Position numbers and translations under genes: made by a program. Below the pieces are notes generated by a model. The model did no database searches and was not told the DNA's origin. It saw nothing but the letters and a program-made list of their open reading frames with translations. Below are positions 8,890-23,383 of a stretch of DNA of 64,000 nucleotides, one piece after another (the stretch's first letter is position 1; each line of letters opens with the position of its first letter). Source of the stretch: Chthoniobacterales bacterium (GTDB lineage: Bacteria; Verrucomicrobiota; Verrucomicrobiia; Chthoniobacterales; UBA10450); the NCBI GenBank assembly GCA_965217815.1, contig CBDCJI010000001.1, forward strand, positions 527,088 to 591,087. The letters are read 5' to 3'.

Positions 8890-10058
8890 CGGCTTCGCTT
8901 TCTGAGAAAGCCAAACAAGTGCATCGAGAACTGCACGAGCAACCCGAGCCCGACCAGCGCGCAGGCGATATAGGGCAGGAGCATGGCCGGGTTTTTCACC
9001 ACCTGAAGAATGGTCGTCTGATCGTTGTTGTCGAAGCCGGACTGATAAAAAGTGAAGCCGCGATAGCGCAGCGGATCGTTCATGGAGATGAGGACCTCAC
9101 GGTTTTCGCCGCGCTCGAGATCGACCAGGCGGACGCGGCTGGAGAAGTTTTTCGGGATGTCGGTGCCGGCATAACGATCGTGCGAGAAGTGGATCAGGCT
9201 GAGCGCGAATTGCTTGTAGAAACGCCGTTGCCGCATGATCAGCTGGAAGGTGCGATCCCCCACCGCGAGCGGCTGCGGCTGCTCGATCGCGTTCGAGACG
9301 AGCCAGGTGCCTAACGAACCTTGGATGCCGTCGAGCTCGACGAAAGCCGCGCTCAAATCGCGCTCGTCATCCTTGACCGTGCGCGGGATTTCCGCGGCCA
9401 CCACACTCGTGCCGAAGCCGGTGGTGGCGGGCGAGGGCGGCGCCTCCGGTTCCTGCGCGCGCATGGCGAGGTGCGCGTTCGGGAGGAAACGGCGGATTTT
9501 GAGAGTGAAAGGCAGAGCCGGGTTTTGCAGCGTGCCGCCCTCGGCCAGGCGATCTTCGGGAATCGAGACCACCTGGTCGTAGTCGGGGTGAGTCGTCTCG
9601 ATGACGGCCAGCTCGACTTCACGCGGCGCTTCCGAGTAAGCGGAGGTCTGGCCATTATCGAGCCGCATTTGCGTTTCCCGAGCGAAGAGGCCGGTGAGCA
9701 ACTGGCCGATCAACAAAAGGACCACGCCGAGATGGAGCAGAAAGATGCCGATCTTCTTGCGCGAGAGTTGGAAACGGGTGGCATGGGCCGCGAGCAGGTT
9801 GAGGAGGAGGACCGTGCCTAACAAATAACCGCCGGGCAAAACCGGAATCTTCCAGTTCGCTCCGGCGGGCGACCAGAAAACGAAGAGGCTCTGAAAATAA
9901 CGCGCCTGCACCGCATGAATGCCGAGATGGACCTGCGAGAGCGTGCCAAAAAAAATCAGGAGCATTCCGATCCCGAGGCAGACGACGGTGAGCCGGAGGG
10001 AGGCGAGAAAGCGCAGCGGCCCCAGGAATTCGTTAGGCGAAGCGGTCGTCGCGGACAT
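8886..10058 (-). CDS. ccsB: Cytochrome c biogenesis protein CcsB/ResB
   Basis: ResB-like N-terminus LASLRLTVVCLGIGMLLIFFGTLSQV, a large soluble loop and a C-terminal TM (VKNPAMLLPYIACALVGLGLL). It is translationally coupled to ccsA. Confidence 0.85.
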   Translation of the reverse strand: MSATTASPNEFLGPLRFLASLRLTVVCLGIGMLLIFFGTLSQVHLGIHAVQARYFQSLFVFWSPAGANWKIPVLPGGYLLGTVLLLNLLAAHATRFQLSRKKIGIFLLHLGVVLLLIGQLLTGLFARETQMRLDNGQTSAYSEAPREVELAVIETTHPDYDQVVSIPEDRLAEGGTLQNPALPFTLKIRRFLPNAHLAMRAQEPEAPPSPATTGFGTSVVAAEIPRTVKDDERDLSAAFVELDGIQGSLGTWLVSNAIEQPQPLAVGDRTFQLIMRQRRFYKQFALSLIHFSHDRYAGTDIPKNFSSRVRLVDLERGENREVLISMNDPLRYRGFTFYQSGFDNNDQTTILQVVKNPAMLLPYIACALVGLGLLVQFSMHLFGFLRKRSR

Positions 10059-10185
10059 GATCAGGAAAATGACGAAGTGCGAAGTCCGAAATCCGAAGCA
10101 AACCCCAAACCCGAAAGACCAAACAAAAGCAGGCGCGGGGGGTGAATCCTTCGGGCTTCGCGCTTCGTTATTGTTTCGGGCTTCG

Positions 10186-11346
10186 TCATTCGGATTTAGT
10201 CATTTCCCTCGGAAGTTTCAAGCTGCGCAGAAAATCGAGAAAGGCGCTTTTTTGCGCCGCCACGGCAACGTCTTCGCCTGTCATTTTGATAAACCAGGAG
10301 CGCTCGTTCTCGTCCAAAATGGCGGCGAGAATGCGTTGCGAGCCGCCCGCCAGATCGACCACGAGGAAGTCGTGCCCGTTGGCGTTTACATGCTCGGCCG
10401 ACTTCGCCAGCGTATCCTCGTCGATCGGCGGCAGCTTCACCTGCCCGCGCCAGCGATTGACGTTGGCCAGGTCGCCGCCGGCGATTCCGGCGAGGCTGAC
10501 CACGGAGACGTCCGCCTTTTTTCCGTTGGGCGCGACGGCGTCGAAGCTGGCCAGGCGCATGGTCGAGAGCGGTTTCTCTTGCCAGCCGGCCGGCAACTGG
10601 TAGGCCAGCGGGGCGCCAGCCGCGGGTGCAATCGGGGGCGGAGTGGGGGCGTTCGTGCTCCCACTGTCGGCCGTCATCGGCGAGATGCTCGCCCCGGACT
10701 CTTCGGGATGGACGCTCCCGAGGAATTGCCGGAAAGCGTTCCGCTGCGCTTCCACGAGCTGATCCGGCCCCATCATTTTGAAAAACCAGGTCTCGCCCGG
10801 GAGCGGAAAAATCCCGCCGAGGATGCGCGACTTCGCTCCGTCCGGCGTGATCGCCTGCGCGCTCACCAGATCGACGAAAAACAGGTCGCGCCCCGCCACC
10901 GGCATGGGAGTGCCGACTTCGGCTTCGTTGCCAATCGGCGGAAGCTTGAGCTGATCGCGCCAGCGATTCACGTTCGCGAGCAGACCGCCCGCCTGCTCCG
11001 GAAACGAAATCACCGAGACGTCCGCCGTTTTTCCGTCGGGCCCTTTGACTTTGAAGCTGCCTTTACGAAAACCGCTGGCCGGTTGTTCTTCCCAAGCGGC
11101 GGGCGCGGTCCAATGGACTGCCGGCGCGGCCGCGGAATTGAGCGCGGGCGGGGCCGGAGGCGTCTCCTTGGGGATGCGGTAAACCGTAATCTTGTCGTCC
11201 CCGCCGCGGTCACAGCCGGCGCAGAAGAGAAGCGCGGCCAGGAGCGGCGACAGCCTAACGAGTTTGTGCGGAACGATAAACAACGGCTTCACGGGCAGGT
11301 TGCGAAGTACCTGCCAGCGGCGACGGAAGTCAAGAGCAAGGGGCAT
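10186..11346 (-). CDS. Lipoprotein with two tandem homologous domains, function unknown
   Basis: Lipobox LLFCAGC. Two internal repeats each contain K(T/K)ADVSV(I/V)S...ANVNRWR(D/G)Q(L/V)KLPPI ... FFK/FIKMTG. The true start may be an internal GTG. Confidence 0.7.
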   Translation of the reverse strand: MPLALDFRRRWQVLRNLPVKPLFIVPHKLVRLSPLLAALLFCAGCDRGGDDKITVYRIPKETPPAPPALNSAAAPAVHWTAPAAWEEQPASGFRKGSFKVKGPDGKTADVSVISFPEQAGGLLANVNRWRDQLKLPPIGNEAEVGTPMPVAGRDLFFVDLVSAQAITPDGAKSRILGGIFPLPGETWFFKMMGPDQLVEAQRNAFRQFLGSVHPEESGASISPMTADSGSTNAPTPPPIAPAAGAPLAYQLPAGWQEKPLSTMRLASFDAVAPNGKKADVSVVSLAGIAGGDLANVNRWRGQVKLPPIDEDTLAKSAEHVNANGHDFLVVDLAGGSQRILAAILDENERSWFIKMTGEDVAVAAQKSAFLDFLRSLKLPREMTKSE

Positions 11347-11403: not shown

Positions 11404-12654
11404 TTAGGCGTCGAGGACGACATCGCTCTTGGGAGCTCCGATGCAGGTTAAACGTGTCCCGGGTTCGGTCTGGAAATCGGATTTTTCGATGTAATCGACT
11501 TCGCCCGAGAAGACCGCGACCTGGCAGGTGCCGCAACTGCCGGCGCGGCAGCCGCTCGGGATGCTGACGCCATTCGCTTCAGCCAAATCGAGCAGGCTGG
11601 TGACGTCGCCGCACCATTGCGCGGTCTTGCCGCTTTTCTTGAATTGCACGGAGTAGCCGGTGGCGATTTTCGCTTCGGGCGAGACGACGGCGGCGACCTT
11701 TTTCACGCTGGAGGGGCCGAAAGTTTCGTAGTGGATGTTCTTCTCGGGAACGTTCCATTCCTTCAGGCCTTCGGTCACATCCTGCATCATCGGCCCCGGG
11801 CCGCAGAGGTAGTAATCGAAGTTATTCGAGGGCAGCACTTTTTTGAAAAGCTCGACCGAGATGCGCGCTTCGTGATGGTAATCGCGCCCCAACTCGTAAT
11901 CCGGGTCGGGCTTACTCGCGCAGACTTGCAGGTGCACGTTCGGATGCTCGCGCGCGATCGCTTCGAGGTGCTCCTTCATGATGTGTTCGGAGCGGTTGCG
12001 AATGCCGTGGAAGAACCAGATCTCGCGCCGCGAACCCTGGGCGACGAGCGTGTTAAGCATGGCGAGGACGGGGGTGAGGCCGATGCCGCTGCCGATGAGG
12101 ACGACGCCGCCGGTGCCCGCCGGGTCGAGGTAAAATTGGCCGGACGGCGCTTTGACATCGAGGATGTCGCCTTCCTTGACCTGGTCGTAGAAGAAGGTAG
12201 AGGCGAGCCCCGGCGGATGGTCCTTATCGCGCGGCGGGATGCGTTTGATGGTGACGCGATAACTATCGGGCCGCGGGCCGTCGGAGAGGCTGTAGCAACG
12301 GACGATCGGCTTGGTTTGGCCGGGGATGTCGAGGTGAAAAGTGAGGTATTGGCCGGGCAGAAAACCGGGAAGGGCTTTCTTATCGTGCGGCGCGAGGTGG
12401 AAGGAGCAGATGTCTTCGCACTCGACGACTTTGCGACCGACGAGGAATTTGCGCCAGCCGTTCCAGGGCAAACCGCTCTCGGCTTTTTGCCGGCGCAGGT
12501 CGCGCATCATTTCGAGCTCGGTTTTGAGCAGCTCGAGGGAAAGTTCGGCCTGCCGATTTTGGCCGCTGAGCCGGCGCAGATTCGCCGCCGTCACCAGCCC
12601 GAGCTGGATCAGTCCGCCGCCGACAAGAAGGCCGCCAAGTGCTTCCGGGATCAT
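11404..12654 (-). CDS. Membrane-anchored FAD/NAD(P)-binding oxidoreductase with a C-terminal plant-type 2Fe-2S ferredoxin domain
   Basis: N-terminal TM helix, RCYSLSD (RxYS FAD motif), GSGIGLTPVLAML (NAD(P) site), CGPGPMM, and the C-terminal CRAGSCGTCQVAV 2Fe-2S motif. Confidence 0.85.
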   Translation of the reverse strand: MIPEALGGLLVGGGLIQLGLVTAANLRRLSGQNRQAELSLELLKTELEMMRDLRRQKAESGLPWNGWRKFLVGRKVVECEDICSFHLAPHDKKALPGFLPGQYLTFHLDIPGQTKPIVRCYSLSDGPRPDSYRVTIKRIPPRDKDHPPGLASTFFYDQVKEGDILDVKAPSGQFYLDPAGTGGVVLIGSGIGLTPVLAMLNTLVAQGSRREIWFFHGIRNRSEHIMKEHLEAIAREHPNVHLQVCASKPDPDYELGRDYHHEARISVELFKKVLPSNNFDYYLCGPGPMMQDVTEGLKEWNVPEKNIHYETFGPSSVKKVAAVVSPEAKIATGYSVQFKKSGKTAQWCGDVTSLLDLAEANGVSIPSGCRAGSCGTCQVAVFSGEVDYIEKSDFQTEPGTRLTCIGAPKSDVVLDA

Positions 12655-12664: not shown

Positions 12665-14323
12665 CTAAAACTTCAGGAGGAGTTCGGAACGCAAACCGTA
12701 GGCGGTATCCCGGTCCTCCGGGGCGCCGATGAAGGCATCAAAGACGAGCACGAGATGCTGATTCAACTTCATCTGATAGCGCACGGCGGTGGCGATCTCG
12801 TTCGGCTGGGTGGGGCCAAAAAAATCAGGATCTCGCGTCCTCACCCGGCCGCCCACTTCAAAGACCAGCTGTTTATCGGTCGTGCCCAGAAAAATCTGGT
12901 AACCGAGGGCGAGGCCGACGGCGTCGTTGGCCCGATTGCCGAGAGGCGCGCCATAAGAGCCGAGACCCTGAGCGGCGAAAAGAATACCGGTCTGCCCAAG
13001 CGGGCCGCCCCGGTCGCCCCCGCGGGCGGCGGAGGAGTAATTGTCGATCCCCCAAAAGGCGTTGAGAAAGGCGATGTTTTTGCTTTCCGGCACGGTGATG
13101 GAGAACTGCTGGAAAAGGAGCACACCATTGCTCACGGCCGCCGTCTCGCGATCGAGCGCAAAGGAGGCATTTATCCGCGTGGTCGAGTTAAAAAGTCCGA
13201 TCCGCCGGGTATCGCCCACCCCGAGATATACGCCATCGCCGCCCGTCGGGTCGTCGGCGTTCACGTAGGCAAAATCGAGATCGATCGTGTCTTCGGCGTA
13301 GTCGGCGGTGCTGAAGAGACCGAAGAGCTTGGCGCTGCTGTCCCTCAAGTTGTCGTTCCGGTTGAGCTCGTTCCAGGCGAAGATGCCGGTCGTACGAAAT
13401 GAGGAGGAGCCGAGGAAAAACTCTGACGTTTTCGTGATGCCGATGGCGTCGATCACATCCTCATTGATCATGATGCCGTCCTGGAAGCTGAGGGGCTGCC
13501 GCCCGATCGAGAATTGGTAGTCGAGCCTCTTGGTGTCGTTCGGATCGAGGTTCGGAAAGAGTTCGCCGAAATCACCCTGGAAGAAGAGAGTGGTGACGTA
13601 GCTGTTGAGCGCGTTCTGCGGGCCGTCCCGCGGCTGAAAGCGGTAGCCGCTGTAGGCTTTCCCGTTGCGATCGAGCGGGCGAATGCCGATGAGCAGCCGC
13701 TCCGTCGGGGTGAGGTAGAGGTTGCCGTAAAGATCGAGCCGATTCGCGAACTCGGTGATCTGTCGCCCGTTGCCGTTGTCGAAAGTTTGCAGAGCGGTGC
13801 GCGCGGTCCCGAAAACGAGAAAGACCGGCTGCCAGACGGCGCCGGTCGGGATCTTGAACCCGGGCGCGATGGGGCCTTTGCCCAGAAAAGGATTTTGCCC
13901 GATCTCGATGATCGGTTTCGGGCGATCGGGAAATCCGGCAAGCTTGAGCGGAATCGCCTGGTCGCTCAGGGCGCTGCTCCCGCGCTGGGCGGGCGAGCCG
14001 CTGCGGGTGCGGAAGAGATTGAAGAGGCCGGGTTTTCTTTCCGGCGGGTGCGCCGTGGCGCTCTCGTTCGGCGAGGCGAACCCGGTCTTGCCCGGGGCGG
14101 TCGGGCTGGCTGGGTTCGTCTCTGGCGCACCGCTGGCAGCGCGCGGGACGTTTTCCAGATTGGTCCCGCAGTTGCTGCAAAAGTTAAAGCTCGCCGGCAT
14201 GGAGTGCCCGCAGGTCGGGCAGACGACGGTCTCGCCGGCCGCGGCGGGCTCGGCCAGGGCGCACGGCAGCGGGTTCGCGAAGGCGAAAAGACAGAGCAGC
14301 AGCGTCGTTAAGCTGGAGCGCAT
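12665..14323 (-). CDS. Putative outer-membrane beta-barrel (porin-like) protein with an N-terminal zinc-ribbon-like CxxC..CxxC segment
   Basis: Signal peptide; alternating beta-strand-like composition rich in G/Y/F/N; C-terminal beta-signal LRSELLLKF with a terminal Phe; CPTCGH...CSNCG follows the signal peptide. Confidence 0.6.
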   Translation of the reverse strand: MRSSLTTLLLCLFAFANPLPCALAEPAAAGETVVCPTCGHSMPASFNFCSNCGTNLENVPRAASGAPETNPASPTAPGKTGFASPNESATAHPPERKPGLFNLFRTRSGSPAQRGSSALSDQAIPLKLAGFPDRPKPIIEIGQNPFLGKGPIAPGFKIPTGAVWQPVFLVFGTARTALQTFDNGNGRQITEFANRLDLYGNLYLTPTERLLIGIRPLDRNGKAYSGYRFQPRDGPQNALNSYVTTLFFQGDFGELFPNLDPNDTKRLDYQFSIGRQPLSFQDGIMINEDVIDAIGITKTSEFFLGSSSFRTTGIFAWNELNRNDNLRDSSAKLFGLFSTADYAEDTIDLDFAYVNADDPTGGDGVYLGVGDTRRIGLFNSTTRINASFALDRETAAVSNGVLLFQQFSITVPESKNIAFLNAFWGIDNYSSAARGGDRGGPLGQTGILFAAQGLGSYGAPLGNRANDAVGLALGYQIFLGTTDKQLVFEVGGRVRTRDPDFFGPTQPNEIATAVRYQMKLNQHLVLVFDAFIGAPEDRDTAYGLRSELLLKF

Positions 14324-14333: not shown

Positions 14334-16547
14334 TCAGGGTTCGGCGAGGCGGGTGGCGGCGGCCACTTTTTCCGGAGCGGCGGCCGCGGCGACTTTGTTT
14401 TCGCGAAGTTTGCGCAGCGCTTCTTCCGACTCCGGCAGGAAGGGCTTGGTCGGCGGCGCCATGATCTCTCGCTCGGTCGGCCGCAAATCGATCACAGCCG
14501 GACCGGGCGGGAGGACGACGGTGCGATTCCAAAGGGTCTGCGAACGTTCCACCACCCGATCGGCGATCGATTTAGGCGACATGAAATAATCGAAGCCCAC
14601 TTCCGCGATGTCGCCGACCAGATTTACCGGCACCATCTGGGTGATGAACTTGACGTTCACCCGGTAAGGCGGAGCGCCGGTCAACTGCCTCGCGGTCACC
14701 TTATAGGGCGCCCAGCGGAATCCGTTAGGCGGGAGGACGATGCTCTGTTTGCGCGCGCCCATCGGCCGGGCGAGCAGGGCGTCGGCGTTGGTCGCCGGCC
14801 GCACGTAAGGCAGCGGATCGACGCTTTTGTTCGTCGGCAAAATCTGCACCCGCTCGCCGCCGCGCAGGAGGGTGACGAGGAATTTCGATTGCAGGCTGAA
14901 GAGGTACTTATCGAGCGGCAGCTTAAGATCGTGGACGTAGGCGGACTCGATGTCGCGGACGTCGCCATTCGGGTCGCGATCGCCGGAGACAAAGACAGCG
15001 CGGCCATGGCGATCGGTCACCACGACCTGGAGAAAGTTGGCCCGCTCCGCGTCGAAACCGGTCGGGGCGCCGTGCCCATCGGTGCCGTTGGCCACTTTGA
15101 TCTTAAATTTAATGCCGCGGGGGTCGTTCTGTTCGACGACCAAATCCTGCAGGCGAAATCCGCGGCGGAGAAGCTGGTAACGCTGCTGACTCGCCTCCTC
15201 CAGTTTGGCGAATTGATCGTCGAGAATGGCGCGGGCGTCGTAGCGATCGTCGATCGATTGCCAGCGCGGCGGGAATTTATAATCGGCCGGCGCCTTTTTC
15301 TCGAAAGCATCCGCGCCCCAGCCGGCGCGATAGTCGAATTGCAACCACTCCCGCATCGTCGCGGTCTGCTGCGCCTTCACGTTGAAGGGGAAAAGTCCCG
15401 GGTGAATGACGGAATAATCCGGCCCGGCGAAGCGATGATCGGTCAGCTTGCGCGGCGGGGTCGGCTGGTCGCCGACCATAGCGGCCGGGCCGAAAGCGTA
15501 ACCCGATTTGATGCCGGGGATTTTGCCCATATGGCAATCCTGGCAGGTCTCGCCGCGGGCGTTGGCGGGGGAGTTTTTAAACTGCGAAAAGGCCTCTTCA
15601 AGTCGGAAGCCGTTAAGCAAATTGACGTCGTGGCAGGTGCCGCAGAAGCCGGATTTTTCCAGCGGATCGAACTTGATGACGTTGGTGTGAATCGCACGCC
15701 CGACCTCGCCGCGCTTGGTCACGACCTGGAATTTATCCGGCTGGTTGAGCACCTGTTTGAGGATTTTATTTCCCTTCGGACCGAAGACCGGCTCGAAAAG
15801 ATCGCCTTCCTGGATGGCGGTGCGGCCGCTCACTTTGCCGTAATTATTTTTCACCCGATGGCAGACGATGCAGCTGATGCCTTCACGCGAAGTCGGGTTG
15901 CGATCCATGTTGCTGGCGAAGATCGGTTCCTGCAGCTGCATGCCTACCTGGGTATGGCAGCGAATGCAGAAGTCGCCGTTCGTGCCCGAGGTGCGCTTGT
16001 CGATCGTCGCCTGCATGGTGTTAAAGATCGGGCTGATCTGCGCGTAGGCGTGCTGGGAGACGGACCATTGCCGGAACTGCGTCGGATGGCAGGTCGCGCA
16101 AGTGGAGGCGGAGGGGAACTTGTTCTCCACCAAAAGCTTGGCGTGAGCCGCGGCGGCGTTGCCTTCGGTAGCGGCGCCCGTCGCGGTTTTGGGCGGTGGC
16201 GGGGGCGCGTTGCCCGGCAGGAGAAGTTGATCGGGCATCGGCTCATTGGTCGTAGGCGCGCCGGGAGGAAGCAGCAGATCGTCGTCGGAGGAGGGAGCCG
16301 CGGGTTGCGTCCCGGGAGCGGAGGGAGCGAGCAGATCATCGTCGGTCGAAGTGGCCGCCGCAGCCGGGGCCGGCGGGCTCGGGACGAGCAGATCATCCGC
16401 TTCCTTCGAAGCAGGCGTGGTCAGGGGCGCCGGAGCGCTTGGTGCAGGCGTCGGAGTCGTCGGCGTTTGCGCCCGGAGGTGCCCCGGGGCGGCCCAAGCC
16501 AGGCCGAAAATGGTTAACCTCACGAATTGCCGATCCCACCATCTCAT
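14334..16547 (-). CDS. Pentaheme c-type cytochrome with an N-terminal Pro/Ala/Thr-rich linker
   Basis: Signal peptide and five CXXCH motifs (CATCH, CIRCH, CIVCH, CGTCH, CQDCH). Confidence 0.9.
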   Translation of the reverse strand: MRWWDRQFVRLTIFGLAWAAPGHLRAQTPTTPTPAPSAPAPLTTPASKEADDLLVPSPPAPAAAATSTDDDLLAPSAPGTQPAAPSSDDDLLLPPGAPTTNEPMPDQLLLPGNAPPPPPKTATGAATEGNAAAAHAKLLVENKFPSASTCATCHPTQFRQWSVSQHAYAQISPIFNTMQATIDKRTSGTNGDFCIRCHTQVGMQLQEPIFASNMDRNPTSREGISCIVCHRVKNNYGKVSGRTAIQEGDLFEPVFGPKGNKILKQVLNQPDKFQVVTKRGEVGRAIHTNVIKFDPLEKSGFCGTCHDVNLLNGFRLEEAFSQFKNSPANARGETCQDCHMGKIPGIKSGYAFGPAAMVGDQPTPPRKLTDHRFAGPDYSVIHPGLFPFNVKAQQTATMREWLQFDYRAGWGADAFEKKAPADYKFPPRWQSIDDRYDARAILDDQFAKLEEASQQRYQLLRRGFRLQDLVVEQNDPRGIKFKIKVANGTDGHGAPTGFDAERANFLQVVVTDRHGRAVFVSGDRDPNGDVRDIESAYVHDLKLPLDKYLFSLQSKFLVTLLRGGERVQILPTNKSVDPLPYVRPATNADALLARPMGARKQSIVLPPNGFRWAPYKVTARQLTGAPPYRVNVKFITQMVPVNLVGDIAEVGFDYFMSPKSIADRVVERSQTLWNRTVVLPPGPAVIDLRPTEREIMAPPTKPFLPESEEALRKLRENKVAAAAAPEKVAAATRLAEP

Positions 16548-16689
16548 AAGCGGCTGATCTTTTTTCTCTTAACCCCTTCGCGTCAATCGAAATATGATTT
16601 TTTTGGGAGAAAAATGCTTGCTGCCGAAGAGAAAGATCGTTTAAAAAAATCGAACACCGTTTCACGAACCTGGGAAACCGCCTTTCGAT
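16548..16689. promoter_or_regulatory. AT-rich divergent intergenic region between the two cytochrome operons (probable bidirectional promoter region)
   Basis: 142 bp markedly AT-richer than its surroundings, lying between divergently oriented first genes. No specific operator could be assigned. Confidence 0.3.
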
Positions 16690-17685
16690 ATGATAAATCT
16701 ACGCCAGCCCCTTCTCCTTTTTGCTCTCACTTTCGGCCTCGGCGTCTCGCTCTCTTTGGGGGCACAGGTGCACGAACTGGATCCCGCCAAAGTGGTGGGG
16801 TCGCAGAAGTGCGGCGAATGTCACAAATACGAATTGGAAGCGTGGAAAGGCACGCCCCACTTTGCCACTTTCGACTCCATGCATCGCAGCCCGGCGGGCC
16901 AGAAGATCGCCGGCGCGCTCGGCATTAAACGGATCAAATCGGAAAGCCTGTGCCTGACCTGCCACTACACCGTGCAGATGAAAGGCGGCGCGGCCGAGCC
17001 GATCTCGGGCGTCTCCTGTGAGTCCTGCCACGGCGCGGCGGCCGACTGGGTGAACATTCACAACGACAAAAAACTCTCGAAAGAGGAGCGGCGCACGAAA
17101 TCGGCGGCGGCCGGCATGATTCGTCCCGACGACCTCGCGGCGGTCGCGGCCAACTGTTACCAATGCCATCTCGTGCCTAACGAAAAGCTGGTGAACACCG
17201 GCGGGCACGCCGCGGGCAGCGCCGGCTTTGAATTGGTCGCCTGGTCGCAAGGGATGGTGCGGCACAACTTCCTCACGTCCGATGGCAGCGAAGGCAAAGT
17301 GAATAAAGAAGACGACCAGAACCGCCTGCGCATGATTTTCGCGACCGGCGCCATTCTCGATCTGGAATACAGCCTGCGCGGCGTGGCCAGCGCGACCGAG
17401 AAAGCGACTTATGGCATCACCATGGCGCAACGGGCGAACGCGCTCCGCAAGAAAGTGGCCGCGATCCAGCAAGCCGCGCCGACCGACGAGATGGCGCAGA
17501 TCCTGACCGTGGCCAACGGCGCCGCCCTCAAGTTGAACAACAAAGCGCCGCTCGAAGAAGCCGCCGATAAGGTGGCCGAGCTGGGCAAGAAATTTTCCGC
17601 GAGTGAGACCGGCGACAAACTCGCGGGCCTCGATCCGATGCTTCCAAAGCCGGCTGATTACCGCGGGAAAATTTACCAACCCTAA
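16690..17685 (+). CDS. Tetraheme c-type cytochrome
   Basis: Signal peptide and four CXXCH motifs (CGECH, CLTCH, CESCH, CYQCH). Confidence 0.9.
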   Translation: MINLRQPLLLFALTFGLGVSLSLGAQVHELDPAKVVGSQKCGECHKYELEAWKGTPHFATFDSMHRSPAGQKIAGALGIKRIKSESLCLTCHYTVQMKGGAAEPISGVSCESCHGAAADWVNIHNDKKLSKEERRTKSAAAGMIRPDDLAAVAANCYQCHLVPNEKLVNTGGHAAGSAGFELVAWSQGMVRHNFLTSDGSEGKVNKEDDQNRLRMIFATGAILDLEYSLRGVASATEKATYGITMAQRANALRKKVAAIQQAAPTDEMAQILTVANGAALKLNNKAPLEEAADKVAELGKKFSASETGDKLAGLDPMLPKPADYRGKIYQP

Positions 17686-17748
17686 CGCCTCGCGACCGCA
17701 TGACCGTCGTCGCCTGATCCTGCGCGCGCCGGCCCGGTCGTCTTCGCC

Positions 17749-19485
17749 ATGGCCGATTTCCTGACCCGCATTTCCCGGCCACAGCGGTGGGACGTTCCCT
17801 TCGACCTCGCCATGGGCGAAGCCGAAGTCGCGCGGCTCCTCGAGCTCGCGCCGCTCTCGACTTTCGACGAGACGCGTTTCCCGTCGACGATTCCGTTGCG
17901 CGGGATTTTGCGCAACGACACGCGCCTGCGCCATTTCGAGCCGGGCGACATCATCGTGCGGGAAGGCGATTACGGGAGCTCCGCCTTTCTCATTCTGAGC
18001 GGGAGCGTCCGCGTCATGCTCGACTCTCTGCCCGCGGGACAACTCGGCCGGCGGCCGCCGCAAAAGAAAGGGTTTCTCGAATCGATCGCCCAGCTTTGGT
18101 CCCAGCCGAAATATCCGGAAGTGCGTGATTATGCGGGCGGCAAACTCATGAGCAGCGCTGACGCCGGGAGCATTCGCTCGCGCCAGTCGACCGGCGCGGA
18201 AGTGCGCGTTTTTCTCCAGGATGTCCCCGGCGTTCTGGAAAAAAATCACACCGCGCAACTGGGCGAGGGCGAACTTTTCGGCGAAATCGCGGCCCTCGCC
18301 CGCACCCCGCGCACAGCGACGGTGATCGCGGAAAGTCCGGCCGAGCTCCTCGAACTGCGCTGGCAAGGGCTGCGCGACATCCGCAAATACGCGCCGGAAT
18401 GGAAGGCGCATATCGATCGGCTCTATCGCGAACGCAGTCTGGCCAAGCATTTGCAGGAAACGCCACTGCTAAAAAACCTCTCCGCGGAAGATTTGCGGGA
18501 AGTCGTCGTGCACACCCAGTTTGAGAGTTACGGCGATTTCGAGTGGAATGCTTCCTACCGCACCCTCCGTGAAGCGTCCGCCCAAGAGCGTCTCGCCAAA
18601 GAACCAGTCATCGCGCGGGAAGGCGATTACCCGAATGGGTTAATTCTTATCCGCAGCGGCTTCGCCCGGCTCAGCCGCAAATACAATCATGGCGAACGCA
18701 CCGTCAGTTACCTCGGCAAAGGCGAATACTTCGGGCTTTCCTCGCTCCTGTGCGACGCGGCCTTCGAGGAGCCGGCCGGACTTCAATTTTCCCTGCGCGC
18801 CATCGGTTACGTAGACATTCTCGTCATCCCGACGCCCATTTTCGACCAATACATCGCCCCGCATTTTCGCCCGGAGGAGATTCTGGAATTACGGCAGCGC
18901 GTCCGGCGCGAGAGCGAGATCAATCTCGGGCGCGAGGCCGAGGCGACCTTCGGCCCGGAGATGATCGAGTTCCTGGTCGAGGAACGTTACGTCAACGGCA
19001 CCGCGACCATGTTGATCGATCTCGACCGCTGCACGCGTTGCGACGATTGCGTGCGCGCCTGCGCCGCGAGCCACGATAACAATCCGAAATTCCTCCGCCA
19101 CGGCCGCGTCCAGAATGGGATCATGGTGGCCAACGCCTGCATGCATTGTGTCGATCCGGTCTGCATGATCGGCTGCCCCACGGGAGCGATTCACCGCGAG
19201 TCGATCGAGGGCCAGGTCGTGATCAACGACCTCACCTGCGTGGGCTGCGCGACCTGCGCCAACAGTTGCCCCTACGACAACATTCAGATGGTCGAAATTC
19301 GCGATGCCGGCGGTCGCTTCATCCTCGATGAAGCGACCCGGACGCCCATCCTCAAGGCGACGAAATGCGACCTCTGCGTCGATCAACTCGGCGGCCCGGC
19401 CTGTGTCCGCGCCTGCCCACACGATGCCCTCATCCGCGCGAACATGCAGGACACCGCAAAACTGGCGAGGTGGCTCGACCGGTGA
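17749..19485 (+). CDS. Fusion protein: two cyclic-nucleotide-binding domains plus an NrfC/DmsB-like four-cluster 4Fe-4S ferredoxin domain
   Basis: cNMP-binding signatures: GEGELFGEIAALARTPRTATV, and a second domain with GKGEYFG. Cys clusters: CTRCDDCVRAC, CMHCVDPVCMIGCP, CVGCATCANSCP, CDLCVD..CVRACP. No Tat or Sec signal is visible. Confidence 0.9.
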   Translation: MADFLTRISRPQRWDVPFDLAMGEAEVARLLELAPLSTFDETRFPSTIPLRGILRNDTRLRHFEPGDIIVREGDYGSSAFLILSGSVRVMLDSLPAGQLGRRPPQKKGFLESIAQLWSQPKYPEVRDYAGGKLMSSADAGSIRSRQSTGAEVRVFLQDVPGVLEKNHTAQLGEGELFGEIAALARTPRTATVIAESPAELLELRWQGLRDIRKYAPEWKAHIDRLYRERSLAKHLQETPLLKNLSAEDLREVVVHTQFESYGDFEWNASYRTLREASAQERLAKEPVIAREGDYPNGLILIRSGFARLSRKYNHGERTVSYLGKGEYFGLSSLLCDAAFEEPAGLQFSLRAIGYVDILVIPTPIFDQYIAPHFRPEEILELRQRVRRESEINLGREAEATFGPEMIEFLVEERYVNGTATMLIDLDRCTRCDDCVRACAASHDNNPKFLRHGRVQNGIMVANACMHCVDPVCMIGCPTGAIHRESIEGQVVINDLTCVGCATCANSCPYDNIQMVEIRDAGGRFILDEATRTPILKATKCDLCVDQLGGPACVRACPHDALIRANMQDTAKLARWLDR

Positions 19486-20303
19486 GTCCGCTTCTCGTTA
19501 GGCGAATTGGTCTCTCCCTCGGGCTCGTCCTCCTCTCCGCCGCGGTCTTTTTCGTCTGGCGCGTGGGGCGCGCGGCTTTGCGGCCGGATGGCATTTACAC
19601 CGGATTACTCCTCTTTTTCCTGATCCTCGGGCTGACCCTTTTTAACGCCCGCAAAAAGCTTCCTTTCCTTCCGCTGATCCGCGCCTCGGTCTGGCTGCAA
19701 ATTCACATCTACGCCGGCTGGTTTTGCCTTTTTGTTTTTCTCCTGCACGTTCGCTTTCGCCTTCCCCAAGGCGCTTTCGAGAGCACGCTCGCGCTCGTTT
19801 TTTGGGTCGTTATGCTGAGCGGGTTCTTCGGGCTCTTCATCAGTCGCGACCTCCCTCCGCGGATGGCGCGTTCCGGCGAACCGCTCCTCTACGAGCGCAT
19901 TCCCGGATTCCGTCTCCGGATTCAGCGCGAGGTCGAGGAACTGGTGCGGCAAGCCGAGCGCGAGACGGAATCTTCCACCCTGGGAACGTTTTATGTGCAA
20001 TACCTGCGCGATTTTTTTGTCCATCGCCCGAGCGCCTTTTCGGCCCTGCGCCGGGGCGAGCGGAAGTGGCACGCCCTGCTCGCCGAAACCAACGCGCTCG
20101 ACCGCTATTTGAACGACCGGGAAAAGGCGATCGCGCTCGAGCTGCGCGATTGGATCGAGACCAAGCAAAATCTCGATTTCCAGGACGCAGCCCAACGCCT
20201 CCTAAAATTCTGGCTCTTCGTGCACATTCCTTTTACCTACAGCCTGATTCTACTCGGCCTCGCCCACGGGATCGTGGCGACGCTTTACGCGGGGAGGTGG
20301 TGA
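19482..20303 (+). CDS. Polytopic membrane protein with conserved-looking intramembrane histidines, function unknown
   Basis: The GTG start overlaps the upstream stop (GTGA). About 5 hydrophobic helices carry His residues within them (LQIHIYAG, FLLHVRF, FVHIPF, LAHGIV). The track ORF start at 19365 overlaps the preceding gene and was rejected. Confidence 0.65.
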   Translation: MSPLLVRRIGLSLGLVLLSAAVFFVWRVGRAALRPDGIYTGLLLFFLILGLTLFNARKKLPFLPLIRASVWLQIHIYAGWFCLFVFLLHVRFRLPQGAFESTLALVFWVVMLSGFFGLFISRDLPPRMARSGEPLLYERIPGFRLRIQREVEELVRQAERETESSTLGTFYVQYLRDFFVHRPSAFSALRRGERKWHALLAETNALDRYLNDREKAIALELRDWIETKQNLDFQDAAQRLLKFWLFVHIPFTYSLILLGLAHGIVATLYAGRW

Positions 20304-20304
20304 A

Positions 20305-22644
20305 ATGCAGCGACCGCTCGACCCGCTCCGCTTTAAACAAAACCGCTACGAACGGCCCAATCAGGATTGGGTTTGCGGCCACGCCGCGGAAGGGCACGCC
20401 TGCCCGCTCGGGCCCGATGAGCGCGGCCACTGCCGCCCGACCGGCGAATGCCTTCCCGCCAAAAAAGGCGATCGCTGGATGTGCATGCGGAGCGACGCCG
20501 CCGGCGGCAAGTGCAGCGAAGGTCCGCTGCCTAACGGCGCTTGCGCGCACCCGATCCCGCCCTGCCAGCCGCTGCCGTCGCTCCGCCGGTCGCGCGCGAG
20601 CCTGGTCTGGCTGGCCGTCGCCCTCACGCTCGGGGCGCTCCTTATTTTGCTCGGGAGCACGCGCCTGCGCGAGAGCTGGGCCGATCCCGGTCCGCTCACC
20701 CGGGCCCACGCCACCTCCGCTTCGCAATGCCGCGATTGCCACGCGGTCGACGGGGCCGGCTCCGTCCAGCTCGCGGCCTTTACTTCCCTCGAGGCGAAGC
20801 GACGGGCGGACGGCCAGCTTTGTTTGAAATGTCACGCCCTCGGCGAGCAACCCTTCGCGCCGCACAGCGTCACGCCCATCCGCCTGGTCGCGTTGGAAAA
20901 GAAAATCGCGGCCCTGCCTAACGAGTCGCGCAAAAGCTCCCCGCTCCTGCGGGCCAGCCATGGACTGAACCCGAGCGCGGCGGGCGACGGCCAGCTTGCC
21001 TGCCTGACCTGCCATCAGGAACATCACGGCCGCAACTTCGATCTAAAAAAACTCTCCGACGCACAATGCCAGAGTTGCCACGCGCTCCAGTTCGCCAGTT
21101 TTGCCCATGGGCATCCGGAGTTTTCCCAGTATCCGTACAGCCGGCGCACGCCGATTTTTTTCGATCACGCGAGCCATTTGGGCGAACACTTTTCCGCCAT
21201 GAAATCGAAGGCGCCCGACTCCTGCCAAGGCTGCCATCTGCCCGATGCGGCCGGACGTTTCATGAAGGTGAAAAGTTTCAGCCAAACCTGCGCTGCCTGC
21301 CACGAAGCACAGATCGAAGGCGAAGGCATGACGACCAAAGGCGTGGCCTTTTTCACCGTCCCGGGAATCGATGTGGAGACGCTTGCGGGCAAGGGAATCA
21401 GCGTGGGCGAATGGCCAAAATTTGCCGATCAGAAGATCACGCCCTTCATGGAGCTGCTCCTGCGGCGGCAGGCGGGTCTGGGCGCGGTCCTCGACCAGTT
21501 GCAAGGGGTCGACCTGCTTGACCTGACCAAAGCAACGCCGGACCAGCTCGCGGCCGCGGAAAAATTTGCCTGGGGCGTGAAGGAGTTGCTTTTCCACCTC
21601 GTCGTCGACGGGCAATCTTATCTGCGCACCGAGTTGAAAGGCGGGATCGTACCCGCCGGCATCGAAGTCCCGCGCTCCGCCCTGCTCGCGGCCCAGCGCG
21701 ATTGGATGCCGAATCTGCTGAAGGACGTGCCGAACCACGAACAGGGCCTCGCTCCCCCGCTGCCCGAGCGCACCGCGACGCCCGCACCGGCCGCTTCGCC
21801 TAACGAAAAGCAGGCGGACGGCGACTCGTCTTTGCTTGGCGGCGAAGACCTCGCGGCCACGCCTGCGCCCGCGCCGGCGGGCGGGGGGAACTTGTTAGCC
21901 GGAGGAGACGACGATCTCACGGCGCCTCCTTCCTCGCCCAGCCCGGCACCGGCCTCTGATGACCTCACGAGCGGGGGCGATCTGCTCGACGCAGCCGCCC
22001 CTCCCGCCCCCTCCGTCACGCCCGTCCCCACCCCGGCGGCGGAACCAAAACCGGCCGAAGAATGGGTCACGGCCGGCGGTTGGTATCGGCCACAGGACAG
22101 CTTTTCGCTTTATTACCGGCCAAGTGGCCATAGCGATCCCTTTCTCGTCGCGTGGCTGACGACGGCGGCGAAATGCACGAGCGACTCCGCGGCGCCGGCC
22201 GCGCGCGTCGTTTTCCGCCGGATGGCCGATCCGCAAACGGCTGGTCTTTGTCTGAAATGTCACACCGTCACGGTCCGGGGCGAGGCTTTGCAGGTGAATT
22301 GGTTGCCTAACGAAGCGCTGCCGAAAAAGAAAGGTTTCACCACCTTCCGCCACACCACGCATCTCAGCCTCTTCGGCAATACGGCCTGCGAAACCTGTCA
22401 CGCCCTCAATCCCAAGGCGGAGTATGCGAAATATTTTTCGGGCGAGAGCGGCGCGCTGGCCGAGCGCGAGCCGAGCCATTTCCAGAGCAACTTCGCCCCT
22501 CTCTCGAAGACGCTCTGCCTCCAATGCCACCAGCCGAAAGTGGCCGGCGACTCGTGCCTTCTTTGTCATCGCTATCACGCCGAAGCGACCGATGGCGAAA
22601 TCGCGGGCCGGAATCGATTGCGGCCATTGTTAGGCCAGAAATAA
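20305..22644 (+). CDS. Membrane-anchored decaheme c-type cytochrome with an N-terminal Cys/His-rich segment
   Basis: Ten CXXCH motifs (CRDCH, CLKCH, CLTCH, CQSCH, CQGCH, CAACH, CLKCH, CETCH, CLQCH, CLLCH). About 95 aa of Cys/His-rich N-terminus precede RRSRAS and the single TM LVWLAVALTLGALLILLG. The gene starts 1 nt after the upstream stop. Confidence 0.9.
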   Translation: MQRPLDPLRFKQNRYERPNQDWVCGHAAEGHACPLGPDERGHCRPTGECLPAKKGDRWMCMRSDAAGGKCSEGPLPNGACAHPIPPCQPLPSLRRSRASLVWLAVALTLGALLILLGSTRLRESWADPGPLTRAHATSASQCRDCHAVDGAGSVQLAAFTSLEAKRRADGQLCLKCHALGEQPFAPHSVTPIRLVALEKKIAALPNESRKSSPLLRASHGLNPSAAGDGQLACLTCHQEHHGRNFDLKKLSDAQCQSCHALQFASFAHGHPEFSQYPYSRRTPIFFDHASHLGEHFSAMKSKAPDSCQGCHLPDAAGRFMKVKSFSQTCAACHEAQIEGEGMTTKGVAFFTVPGIDVETLAGKGISVGEWPKFADQKITPFMELLLRRQAGLGAVLDQLQGVDLLDLTKATPDQLAAAEKFAWGVKELLFHLVVDGQSYLRTELKGGIVPAGIEVPRSALLAAQRDWMPNLLKDVPNHEQGLAPPLPERTATPAPAASPNEKQADGDSSLLGGEDLAATPAPAPAGGGNLLAGGDDDLTAPPSSPSPAPASDDLTSGGDLLDAAAPPAPSVTPVPTPAAEPKPAEEWVTAGGWYRPQDSFSLYYRPSGHSDPFLVAWLTTAAKCTSDSAAPAARVVFRRMADPQTAGLCLKCHTVTVRGEALQVNWLPNEALPKKKGFTTFRHTTHLSLFGNTACETCHALNPKAEYAKYFSGESGALAEREPSHFQSNFAPLSKTLCLQCHQPKVAGDSCLLCHRYHAEATDGEIAGRNRLRPLLGQK

Positions 22645-22766
22645 GTTCGAGTTTTGGCGCGGCCGCCGGCGGAGGCGCGATGGGCCGACGACCGGCGCCC
22701 GAAGTAAAGTAAAGCTTCCCAACGAAGCAGCTGGCGTGCTATAACCGTCATAAATCTGATAAAAAT

Positions 22767-23222: not shown

Positions 23223-23276
23223 CGGGTTCGCGCAGCGCTCGCGGCGCGCGGTCAATGAGGCCTGCCGACTCATCGT

Positions 23277-23383
23277 TGTCATCCCGAGCAAAGCGAGGGA
23301 TCTCACGGATTCCGGTCGACGCGGATTGCAAAAGAAGGCCCGTGGTTATCCGTGAGATCCTCGCTGCGCTCGGCATGACAACG
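23277..23383. repeat. Palindromic intergenic repeat, family 1, copy A (arms GTTGTCATCCCGAGC.AGCGAGGGATCTC.CGGA)
   Basis: The left arm 23277-23310 and right arm 23350-23383 are near-perfect reverse complements. The same element recurs at 30487-30595, with a diverged copy at 63675-63802. Confidence 0.85.

Follow-up and report, generated by a model that had tools for sequence, protein, structure and literature searches.

The DNA considered here is a 64,000-nucleotide window from a Chthoniobacterales bacterium (Verrucomicrobiota; NCBI GenBank assembly GCA_965217815.1, contig CBDCJI010000001.1, positions 527,088 to 591,087 of the forward strand), and the system in question is a group of four genes, ptdDEFG, at 16690-22644 on the plus strand. 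Judged by gene-for-gene agreement with the published description, these are the inner-membrane and periplasmic half of the seven-gene cluster ptdABCDEFG, which in the window spans 11404-22644. Their products very likely constitute a transmembrane electron-transfer module, in which PtdE, a four-cluster ferredoxin with two cyclic-nucleotide-binding (CNB) domains, would be joined through a candidate di-haem membrane protein, PtdF, to the periplasmic haems of PtdG and PtdD. A route that is fed by NAD(P)H and runs outwards is slightly favoured, and the model as a whole, that of a quinone-independent, outward chain regulated by cyclic nucleoside monophosphates (cNMPs), is held at about even confidence.

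The operon was named for its penta-, tetra- and deca-haem proteins in a preprint of 2023-24 titled 'Novel Alphaproteobacteria transcribe genes for nitric oxide transformation...' (bioRxiv 10.1101/2023.11.21.568154). There PtdA is described as a pentahaem protein with a beta-sandwich, PtdB as a porin, PtdC as an FAD/NAD(P) oxidoreductase, PtdD as a periplasmic tetrahaem protein, PtdE as a cNMP/iron-sulfur (Fe-S) protein, PtdF as transmembrane and ferric reductase-like and PtdG as a periplasmic decahaem protein, the source genomes being marine and saline metagenome-assembled genomes (MAGs); extracellular electron transfer (Fe(III) reduction) or a role in the nitrogen cycle is suggested, with no mechanism proposed (bioRxiv 10.1101/2023.11.21.568154). 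A full-text search of the literature for the ptd names returned this preprint only. The original prediction on this region, made from the sequence alone, read the four genes as a candidate second-messenger-gated electron wire and implied that the system was new, a claim that does not hold for the cluster itself, PtdE and PtdF included, as it had already been named (bioRxiv 10.1101/2023.11.21.568154). The window shares with the preprint's cluster its seven gene products and their haem counts, and differs in that the genes form two divergent units, that the host is a Chthoniobacterales bacterium and not a marine or saline one, that PtdB carries a zinc ribbon, and that a lipoprotein gene and ccsBA are attached. 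What the sequences add to that description are four clusters (16 cysteines) in PtdE, where the preprint gives two, a membrane anchor and a cytoplasmic, PtdG-specific eight-cysteine (Cys8) domain in PtdG, a membrane anchor in PtdC, and class III cyclase genes linked to the cluster. Gene content, motifs, topology-determining features, conservation and synteny are observed directly.

Layout and conservation of the ptd cluster

Features in the window were assigned from open reading frames (ORFs), Pfam and NCBIfam profile scans, hydropathy and inspection for signal peptides and twin-arginine translocation (Tat) motifs. The neighbourhoods of homologues were taken from the 80 best PtdE-bearing loci, labelled L001 and so on, which were searched with the proteins of the window. 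The seven genes and the region between the two units are as follows.

11404..12654, minus strand: ptdC, with FAD_binding_6, NAD_binding_1 and Fer2 (plant-type [2Fe-2S], C-terminal) domains
12665..14323, minus strand: ptdB, putative outer-membrane beta-barrel with a signal peptide
14334..16547, minus strand: ptdA, pentahaem cytochrome c, signal peptide, Pro/Ala-rich linker, C-terminal region non-haem
16548..16689, no strand: divergent intergenic region ptdA/ptdD, 142 bp, AT-rich, read from the sequence
16690..17685, plus strand: ptdD, 331 amino acids (aa), signal peptide, 4 CXXCH motifs, Pfam Cytochrome_C554 (2.6e-16)
17749..19485, plus strand: ptdE, 578 aa, Pfam cNMP_binding (1.1e-29), Fer4_11 (1.8e-10) and Fer4_7
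19482..20303, plus strand: ptdF, 273 aa, five transmembrane (TM) segments, GTG start
20305..22644, plus strand: ptdG, 779 aa, 10 CXXCH motifs, Pfam Paired_CXXCH_1 and Cytochrome_C7

All seven genes are thus found within 11404-22644, their products having the expected domains and numbers of haems, and they form two units, ptdA-B-C and ptdD-E-F-G, on the minus and plus strands respectively. Many related loci carry the seven genes colinearly on one strand, in the order ptdA to ptdG, and the order in the window is the same except for the inverted ptdABC block; the divergent layout is therefore read as a local inversion of one functional unit, in keeping with the joint function earlier proposed for the four genes and the divergent porin/pentahaem genes. 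The four plus-strand genes had also been called translationally coupled, which is true of ptdE-F-G: the GTG start of ptdF overlaps the TGA of ptdE as GTGA, the 4-nt overlap noted at the outset, with GAGGTGG upstream, and the ATG of ptdG begins one base past the ptdF stop (TGA-A-ATG). It is not true of ptdD and ptdE, which lie 63 nt apart. The intergenic region 16548-16689 holds one sigma-70-like match, within chance expectation, and no inverted repeat as a candidate operator, and promoter and terminator scans over 16300-23300 gave numbers of sites not above those in shuffled sequence.

The association of these genes is widespread. Among the 80 loci PtdE is flanked by PtdF in 78, PtdG in 76, PtdD in 73, PtdC in 65 and PtdA and PtdB in 36 each, and the loci come from at least eight phyla, with Verrucomicrobiota, Planctomycetota, Alpha-, Zeta- and Gammaproteobacteria, SAR324, Nitrospinota and Acidobacteriota represented, so that the four genes are indeed kept together elsewhere. 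A collection with one genome per species holds at least 574 confirmed PtdE matches, Betaproteobacteria being among these hosts too, and a protein collection holds more than 5000 homologues, mostly annotated only as 'cyclic nucleotide-binding domain-containing protein'. The best matches are from Chthoniobacterales MAGs (76-86% identity). PtdE remains 50-56% identical over its full length in loci of marine Alphaproteobacteria (L019, L025, L026), Nitrospinota of the Eastern Tropical North Pacific (L040) and Planctomycetota, and these same loci have syntenic PtdC, PtdD, PtdF and PtdG, plus PtdA and PtdB where present. Cultured carriers exist as well, among them Hwanghaeella grinnelliae Gri0909 (L050), which has all seven genes, and Lacunisphaera/Opitutus isolates. 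Haem counts are kept as well, with five in PtdA (35/35), four in PtdD (63/70) and ten in PtdG (60 of 62 full-length orthologues). With hundreds to thousands of homologues for each protein and a gene order that crosses phyla, a chance association is implausible.

Some loci depart from this layout. The cultured planctomycete Bythopirellula polymerisocia Pla144 (L065, 11725-17500) has unrelated genes after ptdE and no ptdF or ptdG within 10 kb, unlike the related MAGs L066 and L073, and its cluster appears from the sequence to be rearranged or broken. Limisphaerales-type loci (L054, L056, L060, L068, L070, L074, L076, L077) encode a compact PtdG of 521-568 aa, in which the ten haems and the Cys8 domain are kept; in these loci ptdC directly abuts ptdE and a tetrahaem-like gene lies on the opposite strand. 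An identity with the porin-multihaem cluster of freshwater Verrucomicrobia was considered and rejected, since the periplasmic cytochrome of that cluster is octahaem and its composition differs (He et al. 2017, PMC5615132).

PtdE couples cyclic-nucleotide-binding domains to a four-cluster ferredoxin

The 578-residue product of ptdE consists of two cNMP domains followed by a 16-cysteine, four-cluster ferredoxin domain and has no export signal, just as it had first been described. Its landmarks are:

18268..18321, plus strand: phosphate-binding cassette of CNB-A, residues 174-191, GELFGEIAALARTPRTAT, from homologue conservation
18721..18807, plus strand: degenerate cassette of CNB-B, residues 325-353, from homologue alignment
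19006..19458, plus strand: four-cluster [4Fe-4S] ferredoxin domain, residues 420-570, 16 Cys

The Pfam cNMP_binding match falls into three stretches that make up two domains, CNB-A being split by a conserved insertion of about 75 residues within its barrel. In the CNB-A cassette, GELFGEIAALARTPRTATV, residues G178, E179 and R188 occur in 191/191 homologues and T191 in 188/191, and the cassette aligns to those of PKG and PKA in matches to the PDB. CNB-A thus retains both the ribose-binding Glu (E179) and the phosphate-binding Arg (R188), as would be expected of a ligand-competent domain. The nucleotide-contacting residues on which the second-messenger idea depends are accordingly in place in CNB-A but not in CNB-B, which is degenerate: its cassette loop is 8-16 residues longer than the canonical one, and although R350-A351 is kept (R350 in 189/191), the protein in the window has Leu-Ser-Ser where the Glu is expected, with Ser-Ser in place of the usual Glu-Glu. 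CNB-B is probably not a canonical cNMP site.

The cysteines of the ferredoxin domain are spaced as four classical groups, 428/431/434/438, 464/467/472/476, 497/500/503/507 and 540/543/552/556. At least 190 of the 191 homologues conserve each one, and PtdE is therefore assigned four clusters rather than two. Among solved structures its nearest relatives are HycB3 and HycB4 of the hydrogen-dependent CO2 reductase filament (7qv7; 5e-16 and 1.5e-13), followed by an ArrB-type 4Fe-4S subunit (6cz7; 2.1e-13) and HycB of formate hydrogenlyase (7z0s; 4e-12), with the periplasmic NrfC (2vpw) reaching only 8.3e-08. Against the NCBIfam NrfC model PtdE scores 40 bits, where the cut-off is 378, and all its NCBIfam matches are far below their cut-offs. 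An NrfC/DmsB-like domain had been predicted; this is right for the four-cluster superfamily with its 16 cysteines. PtdE is not of the periplasmic NrfC/DmsB subfamily, as there is no Tat signal, and profile scans find no NrfD-like partner gene within the cluster. A cryptic Tat signal was looked for specifically, and PtdE has neither a twin-arginine motif nor a hydrophobic or TM segment. PtdE is judged to be cytoplasmic because of this lack of a Tat or hydrophobic segment, its cytoplasmic polyferredoxin relatives and the existence of FHA-fused variants; a periplasmic, NrfC-like location was rejected on the absent Tat signal, the cytoplasmic partners and the same fusions. In these variants, found among close homologues (P0025, P0033, P0036, P0039; 691-693 aa, 72-74% identity), an FHA domain, which binds phosphothreonine, is added at the N-terminus. 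The fusion suggests a second regulatory input and fits PtdE as a regulatory hub.

PtdF is a candidate di-haem membrane protein

The membrane protein encoded by ptdF was aligned across 75 orthologues. Four His residues are invariant in all 75, H75 and H89 in TM3 and H248 and H262 in TM5 (codons at 19704, 19746, 20223 and 20265), each pair with the spacing His-x13-His, while the two remaining His residues are in a loop and are not conserved. The supposition that the His residues of homologues are conserved is borne out by this alignment, whereas the placing of His inside at least four helices is not, since just two helices carry conserved ones. R7-R8 is nearly invariant and R57-K58-K59 is invariant, both in loops predicted to be cytoplasmic, and TM3 and TM5 therefore both run from inside to outside, in parallel. 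As predicted from this topology, H75 with H248 on the inner side and H89 with H262 on the outer side can each hold one haem. Two stacked haems near opposite faces of the membrane are the geometry of the NADPH oxidases (NOX), ferric reductases and cytochrome b. Residues 122-240, about 120 aa between helices 4 and 5, are conserved and helical; they are predicted to be cytoplasmic and offer a plausible docking platform for PtdE.

The family to which PtdF belongs is harder to name. The NOX and ferric reductase domain (FRD) arrangement of paired His residues, spaced by 12-14 and located in TM3 and TM5, is present in the PtdF sequence, yet no significant Ferric_reduct profile or FRD fold match was found. 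In a tally over 40 members all Pfam matches are below threshold, namely DUF4405 (37/40), Ni_hydr_CYTB (16/40, best E=0.0064) and Ferric_reduct PF01794 (8/40, best E=0.0065), three families that we take to belong to one Pfam two-haem cytochrome clan; no Ni_hydr_CYTB (HydC/FdnI) profile match rises above the gathering score. An AlphaFold2 (AF2) model is all-helical, with a predicted local distance difference test score (pLDDT) of 84.7. PtdF is therefore filed in no known family and is treated, by motif, as a candidate di-haem b carrier.

PtdG is an anchored decahaem protein with a cysteine-rich cytoplasmic domain

The last gene of the cluster encodes a protein of three parts:

20305..20595, plus strand: Cys8 domain, residues 1-97, with eight invariant Cys
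20596..20658, plus strand: single TM anchor, residues 98-118, hydropathy 2.51 over 98-116, AF2 helix 93-117
20728..22644, plus strand: periplasmic decahaem part, from haem motifs and Pfam

A decahaem cytochrome with an RRSRAS stretch and a single TM segment had been foreseen, and the ten CXXCH motifs, the Arg-rich stretch preceding the anchor and a TM segment at residues 98-116 are all there. One TM segment combined with periplasmic attachment of c haems places the Cys8 domain in the cytoplasm. This N-terminus is Cys-rich, as described, but holds eight and not nine cysteines (C24, 33, 43, 49, 60, 70, 80 and 87, invariant in 71/71 orthologues), and its His residues are not conserved. A cytoplasmic location together with eight invariant cysteines implies the binding of a metal or cluster rather than disulfides, although the spacing (x8, x9, x5, x10, x9, x9, x6) is neither a zinc-ribbon nor a ferredoxin pattern. 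The domain has no Pfam match, and a Foldseek search with its model (pLDDT 76.7) gave no matches in the PDB. A word-indexed search with the PtdG N-terminus had returned 7 fragments only and was replaced by an exhaustive phmmer search against 1.84 billion representatives, which found 601 proteins with the domain; among the 150 matches listed it is always N-terminal, mostly starting at residue 1 of proteins of 650-1100 aa, and it is therefore considered specific to PtdG. The Cys8 domain is absent from the main text of the preprint, where PtdG is called periplasmic (bioRxiv 10.1101/2023.11.21.568154).

The haem part consists of a six-haem block (142-333) and a four-haem block (649-755), between which lie a conserved non-haem region and a Pro/Ala-rich linker, and the haem motifs are always arranged 6+4 around the variable linker. 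The Pro/Ala-rich linkers of PtdA (residues 48-110) and PtdG (500-560) both contain repeated acidic motifs of the form D-D-(D)-L-L / G-D-L-L, which could be shared short linear binding motifs.

Probable electron entry through PtdC, and the periplasmic and outer-membrane proteins

The probable point of entry for electrons is PtdC, a gene product that was overlooked when the wire was first proposed from Fe-S clusters through a di-haem b protein to 14 periplasmic c haems, an architecture that otherwise stands. PtdC has an N-terminal TM anchor in 56/61 orthologues and would bind its [2Fe-2S] cluster through Cys 369/374/377/404; its relatives in the PDB are the reductase modules of flavohaemoglobins (2e-52) and phthalate dioxygenase reductase, which has a similar layout. 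The gene usually lies directly beside ptdD or ptdE, and the protein is separate, not fused to PtdF. PtdD is, as anticipated, a periplasmic tetrahaem protein with a signal peptide, four CXXCH motifs and a Cytochrome_C554 match; its N-terminal half is c554-like and its C-terminal half is non-haem and weakly conserved.

PtdA is weakly similar to Thermochromatium tepidum c552 (5ZE8, 7.3e-06) and to Geobacter ExtKL (NF040886, 7.6e-07), pentahaem proteins of a family associated with porin-cytochrome clusters, cytochrome nanowires and extracellular electron transfer (PMC11976967). It scores 28 bits against the DmsE family TIGR03508, for which the cut-off is 192, and is also far from reaching the cut-off for ExtKL. 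PtdB ends in most orthologues in a C-terminal ...KF beta-signal; it has no MtrB_PioB or other Pfam porin match, the sole match being Zn_Ribbon_1 at residues 35-56. This corresponds to a CPxC...CSNC zinc ribbon at residues 31-57, after the signal peptide, an odd place for such a module; it is confined to the Chthoniobacterales relatives (L001-L006).

Cyclase genes beside the cluster and the case for cyclic-nucleotide control

Recurrent neighbours of the cluster were sought by de novo clustering of all ORFs in the 80 loci, followed by a hidden Markov model of cyclase proteins. Class III adenylate/guanylate cyclase genes adjoin ptd in 19/80 loci from several phyla, for instance at L010:1666-3816(-), L017:1302-3446(+), L071:14715-16946(+), L075:13898-16741(-) and L028:5312-7201(-), with 14 more loci besides; 15 of the 19 are no more than 1.5 kb from a ptd gene and one is 4 nt from ptdC. 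Their sensor domains vary with lineage, being CHASE2 in Puniceicoccaceae, Limisphaerales and Phycisphaerales, 7TMR-DISM in SAR324, and a receiver plus phosphoesterase in one zetaproteobacterium, with none recognised in Pirellulales. Such differing architectures across phyla argue for repeated, independent recruitment of cyclases. The linkage is the strongest computational support for cNMP signalling to PtdE. At the substrate-specifying position the cyclases have Lys, Glu, Asp or Ala depending on the locus, and no call between cyclic AMP (cAMP) and cyclic GMP (cGMP) is therefore made. The second-messenger idea is in this way strengthened by the neighbouring cyclases and the canonical CNB-A, though not by the degenerate CNB-B. 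That regulation by cNMPs is genuine has an even to slightly better than even likelihood on these sequence grounds; a gating of electron flow by the nucleotide is something that we infer from them.

What if the CNB domains do not sense a cyclic nucleotide at all? They might serve as a scaffold for structure or dimerisation, or bind another ligand, in which case the chain would be real but not gated by cNMPs. Many CNB-fold domains do not bind cNMPs, and proteins of the CRP/FNR family exist that sense haem, 2-oxoglutarate or nothing. The elongated CNB-B cassette without its ribose-contacting Glu and the conserved insertion of about 75 residues inside the CNB-A barrel would suit such a role, as would the scarcity of nearby cyclases, there being none in the window and none near the cluster in 61/80 loci. 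Set against this is the cassette of CNB-A, FGE...PRTAT, whose E179 and R188 are invariant (191/191) across phyla at about 50% overall identity, which is hard to explain without contact with a ligand, and the recruitment of cyclases of three sensor architectures beside the cluster in distant lineages. A non-sensing role is therefore rated as rather improbable, and it is compatible with the rest of the chain model.

The proposed route of electrons and its alternatives

In the model preferred here, NAD(P)H in the cytoplasm would reduce the membrane-tethered PtdC, first at its FAD and then at its [2Fe-2S] cluster, and PtdC would in turn reduce the four [4Fe-4S] clusters of PtdE. PtdE would dock at the conserved cytoplasmic face of PtdF, whose two b haems (H75+H248 inner, H89+H262 outer) would pass the electrons across the membrane to the ten c haems of the anchored PtdG and the four of the soluble PtdD. 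In clusters that have ptdA and ptdB, the pentahaem protein and the beta-barrel could take the electrons further, to an acceptor located at the outer membrane or outside it. The Fe-S wire would have two states, docked and undocked (autoinhibited), and the binding of cAMP or cGMP to CNB-A would toggle it between them, by analogy with the regulatory subunit of protein kinase A (PKA-R), the nucleotide releasing the Fe-S domain or enabling it to dock. The Cys8 domain of PtdG may bind a metal, as Zn or an Fe-S cluster, and help to assemble the cytoplasmic module. Counting FAD, one 2Fe-2S, four 4Fe-4S, two haem b and 19 haem c, the complete chain would have some 27 redox centres, to which metal sites in the Cys8 domain may add; it would follow the logic of the NADPH oxidases and ferric reductases, but with separate subunits. 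Cofactor occupancy, contacts between subunits, the direction of flow, ligand binding, the mechanism of gating and the acceptor are what we infer.

Outward flow is favoured because the membrane potential aids the outward and opposes the inward movement of negative charge, and because a two-haem wire offers no coupling device, the reduction of NAD(P)+ by donors at the level of Fe(II) or nitrite being uphill. Without a quinone step, outward flow would cost the cell both NAD(P)H and membrane potential, which provides a rationale for a built-in switch.

An alternative is that the chain is part of quinone-linked respiration. PtdF would then be a quinol dehydrogenase or quinone reductase in the role of CymA, CbcL or FdnI, feeding the haems of PtdG and PtdD; PtdC and PtdE would feed the quinone pool or do no more than modulate, and outward flow would amount to energy-conserving anaerobic respiration. 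The combination of a b-type membrane protein with a multihaem c protein recalls Geobacter CbcL, and the porin-cytochrome systems characterised to date draw their electrons, to our knowledge, from quinol. Ni_hydr_CYTB, the model of the quinone-reactive HydC/FdnI b cytochromes, is weakly matched by the 16 PtdF members already mentioned, and Fe(III) reduction is what the preprint suggests (bioRxiv 10.1101/2023.11.21.568154). Pfam and NCBIfam scans, however, reveal no quinone-interacting subunit of the NrfD, NapC/NirT or NarI type, and the conserved PtdC reductase and four-cluster PtdE beside PtdF would be needless for a quinol oxidase. Many of the hosts are moreover aerobes, and the Pfam matches of PtdF are below threshold. 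This reading is regarded as unlikely.

It is more doubtful still that PtdA, a member of the NrfA/octahaem superfamily COG, is a terminal periplasmic reductase of nitrite, NO, hydroxylamine or a sulfur oxyanion, for which the chain would supply NAD(P)H electrons in detoxification. PtdA is placed in the COG of NrfA, the cluster occurs in nitrite oxidisers and NO-transforming Alphaproteobacteria, and ptdA and ptdB are highly transcribed in an oxygen-deficient zone (bioRxiv 10.1101/2023.11.21.568154); PtdA also has weak matches to models of the NrfH/NapC/TorC type. Yet its five motifs are all CXXCH and none is CXXCK; T. tepidum c552 and ExtKL, to which it is closest, are considered to be electron carriers; its gene is paired with that of an outer-membrane barrel; and over half of the loci have no ptdA or ptdB, whereas ptdC to ptdG persist.

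Uptake of electrons inwards, from Fe(II), reduced humics or sulfur species via PtdF, PtdE and PtdC to NAD(P)H or reduced ferredoxin for autotrophy, is very improbable: the reversibility of modules of the ferredoxin-NADP+ reductase type and the presence of the cluster in MAGs of Zetaproteobacteria (Mariprofundus), Nitrospinota and SAR324, groups rich in lithoautotrophs that need reducing power, would favour it, but the flow would be against the membrane potential towards NAD(P)+ at about -320 mV, far below the Fe(II) and nitrite couples, and no device that could drive it, such as a proton pump, Q-cycle or bifurcating flavin, is visible (an argument from established bioenergetics), and most hosts are heterotrophic bacteria of the Planctomycetes-Verrucomicrobia-Chlamydiae (PVC) group.

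The NAD(P)H-fed, cNMP-regulated outward chain has its own difficulties, and the following points weigh against it. For outward flow the case is made only from electrostatics and the presence of the NAD(P)H module, and a quinone site in PtdF is possible. Binding of haem b by PtdF is a candidate assignment from its His pattern alone: Foldseek comparison of the PtdF model with the PDB gave nothing significant (best E=0.21, to unrelated periplasmic four-helix sensor domains), and hhalign of the PtdF profile gave 0.3% with Escherichia coli MsrQ and 0.07% with E. coli YodB (b561), figures limited by the use of a single sequence as template in each case and by the low diversity of the alignment (effective number of sequences, Neff, of 2.4). 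In CNB-B the position of the Glu is taken by Leu or Phe (L330 in 146/191), and the Cys8 domain of PtdG has no CxxC or CxxCxxC motif. With regard to the cyclases, the 64-kb window and 61 of the 80 neighbourhoods are without one, 11 of the 19 linked loci are of a related Pirellulales type, and cyclases are numerous in PVC genomes, so that part of the adjacency could reflect chance or shared ancestry. Since ptdA and ptdB are lacking from the flanks of more than half of the 80 loci, an extracellular acceptor is not universal, and the hosts include Fe(II) and nitrite oxidisers, in which an export of electrons is not obvious. The literature searched contains no experimental study of any Ptd protein, and the function of ptd, in the words of the preprint, 'remains completely unknown' (bioRxiv 10.1101/2023.11.21.568154).

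Accessory and neighbouring genes

Beyond ptdC the window carries a set of genes that belong to the extended ptd region of this lineage:

6991..11346, minus strand: lineage-specific accessory genes downstream of ptdC, from Pfam ResB and Cytochrom_C_asm and a lipobox
10186-11346, minus strand: lipoprotein of 386 aa with a lipobox, an internal duplication (repeat ...ADVSV.S...GG.LANVNRWR.Q.KLPPI...) and no Pfam match
8886-10058, minus strand: ccsB/resB-like gene of system II cytochrome c biogenesis
6991-8889, minus strand: ccsA/resC-like gene of system II cytochrome c biogenesis

The lipoprotein gene and ccsBA travel with ptd in the Chthoniobacterales loci L001, L002, L005 and L006, on the other side of the cluster in L001, and the trio may be dedicated to haem attachment. 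The ccsBA end of the extended region is bordered, at the left end of the window (35-6506), by mobile-element genes for a TrwC-type relaxase/helicase (35-2854), a phage-integrase-like protein (4047-5237, minus strand) and an AbiEii toxin (5712-6506, minus strand).

Downstream of ptdG there are a lipoprotein-like ORF (22767-23222), a gene for a PepSY-domain protein (23661-23939) and one for MsrA with a signal peptide (23961-24554, minus strand), a trio seen in the same place in L006. Once exported, MsrA would depend on a reductant in the periplasm, which recalls the MsrPQ system. Elsewhere, at 41805-43267 on the plus strand, a low-GC island (about 49% against about 62% in the remainder) encodes an HTTM-domain protein and, as a separate ORF, a match to the lumenal domain of vitamin K-dependent gamma-carboxylase (VKGC); this is probably a split, horizontally acquired VKGC-like pair.

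Significance and comparison with known systems

The hosts of the cluster include abundant soil Verrucomicrobiota, Planctomycetota, Alphaproteobacteria of marine oxygen-deficient zones, nitrite oxidisers and iron oxidisers. If the preferred model is correct, many aerobes own an NAD(P)H-fed route of electron export that bypasses the quinone pool, and the cluster becomes a candidate for extracellular redox chemistry that matters in the environment, such as the reduction of iron and humics or the production of reactive oxygen. It would also place an Fe-S wire under the direct control of a cyclic nucleotide, a mode of regulation that is not known for respiratory complexes. A further reading, which is tentative and on balance doubtful, sees in Ptd a multi-subunit bacterial counterpart of the NADPH oxidases and ferric reductases that exports NAD(P)H electrons to the surface of mostly aerobic cells and is switched by cAMP or cGMP through environment-sensing cyclases. 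Ptd would then be the first electron wire of respiratory type shown to be under direct gating by a second messenger, and a candidate for the enzymes with which aerobic heterotrophs of soil and ocean reduce extracellular Fe(III) or humics or produce superoxide. The invariant residues E179 and R188 of PtdE, H75, H89, H248 and H262 of PtdF and the eight cysteines of PtdG are the targets for mutagenesis.

Individual parts of the system have well-known counterparts. The 16-Cys, four-cluster domain of PtdE is shared with the HycB/HydN polyferredoxins (7qv7, 7z0s), which are likewise cytoplasmic electron wires, but these have no cNMP-binding domains and are not encoded with a membrane cytochrome b. 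Its FGE...R[TS]A cassette is that of the tandem CNB regulators (the PKA regulatory subunit, PKG, CRP and the SthK/HCN channels), and the succession of CNB-A and CNB-B recalls PKA-R and PKG. In those regulators the output is a kinase-binding, DNA-binding or channel module, whereas in PtdE it is an Fe-S ferredoxin, and PtdE differs further in its 75-residue CNB-A insertion and its degenerate CNB-B.

Chains that join haem c, haem b and cytoplasmic Fe-S centres are already known from sulfate reducers, in TmcABCD, HmcABCDEF and DsrMKJOP, which share with Ptd the layers of periplasmic multihaem c, membrane di-haem b and cytoplasmic Fe-S protein. These complexes employ a NarI-type cytochrome b and HdrD-type CCG Fe-S proteins and carry electrons inwards to sulfite reduction; unlike Ptd they lack a flavoprotein, a cNMP domain and an outer-membrane module. 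Profile scans of the Ptd proteins gave no Nitrate_red_gam or CCG matches, and the matches of PtdE to HmcB, DsrO and QrcC reflect a generic four-cluster fold only, far below the cut-off. At the outer membrane, the pairing of a barrel gene with a multihaem cytochrome gene is common to Ptd and to MtrCAB, PccOmaB/OmbB/OmcB and ExtHIJKL, although PtdB and PtdA do not match the families of the MtrB/PioB barrel and MtrA/DmsE decahaem that define the Mtr and Pcc systems. The inner-membrane feed differs too, being NAD(P)H, Fe-S and haem b in Ptd and a quinol dehydrogenase in the others.

The closest parallel in logic is with NOX, FRE, SpNOX and MsrQ-Fre, in which an NAD(P)H-flavin module passes electrons to two stacked b haems and on to an acceptor at the outer face, in an outward, electrogenic and controlled manner. 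In the NOX family two pairs of His residues, located in helices three and five, hold the b haems. PtdF is unlike NOX and FRD proteins in its five TM segments and 120-aa loop, and has no significant sequence, profile or fold match to them. In Ptd, unlike NOX, FRE and MsrQ-Fre, the modules are separate, a [2Fe-2S] and four [4Fe-4S] clusters are interposed between flavin and haem b, and 14-19 c haems follow.

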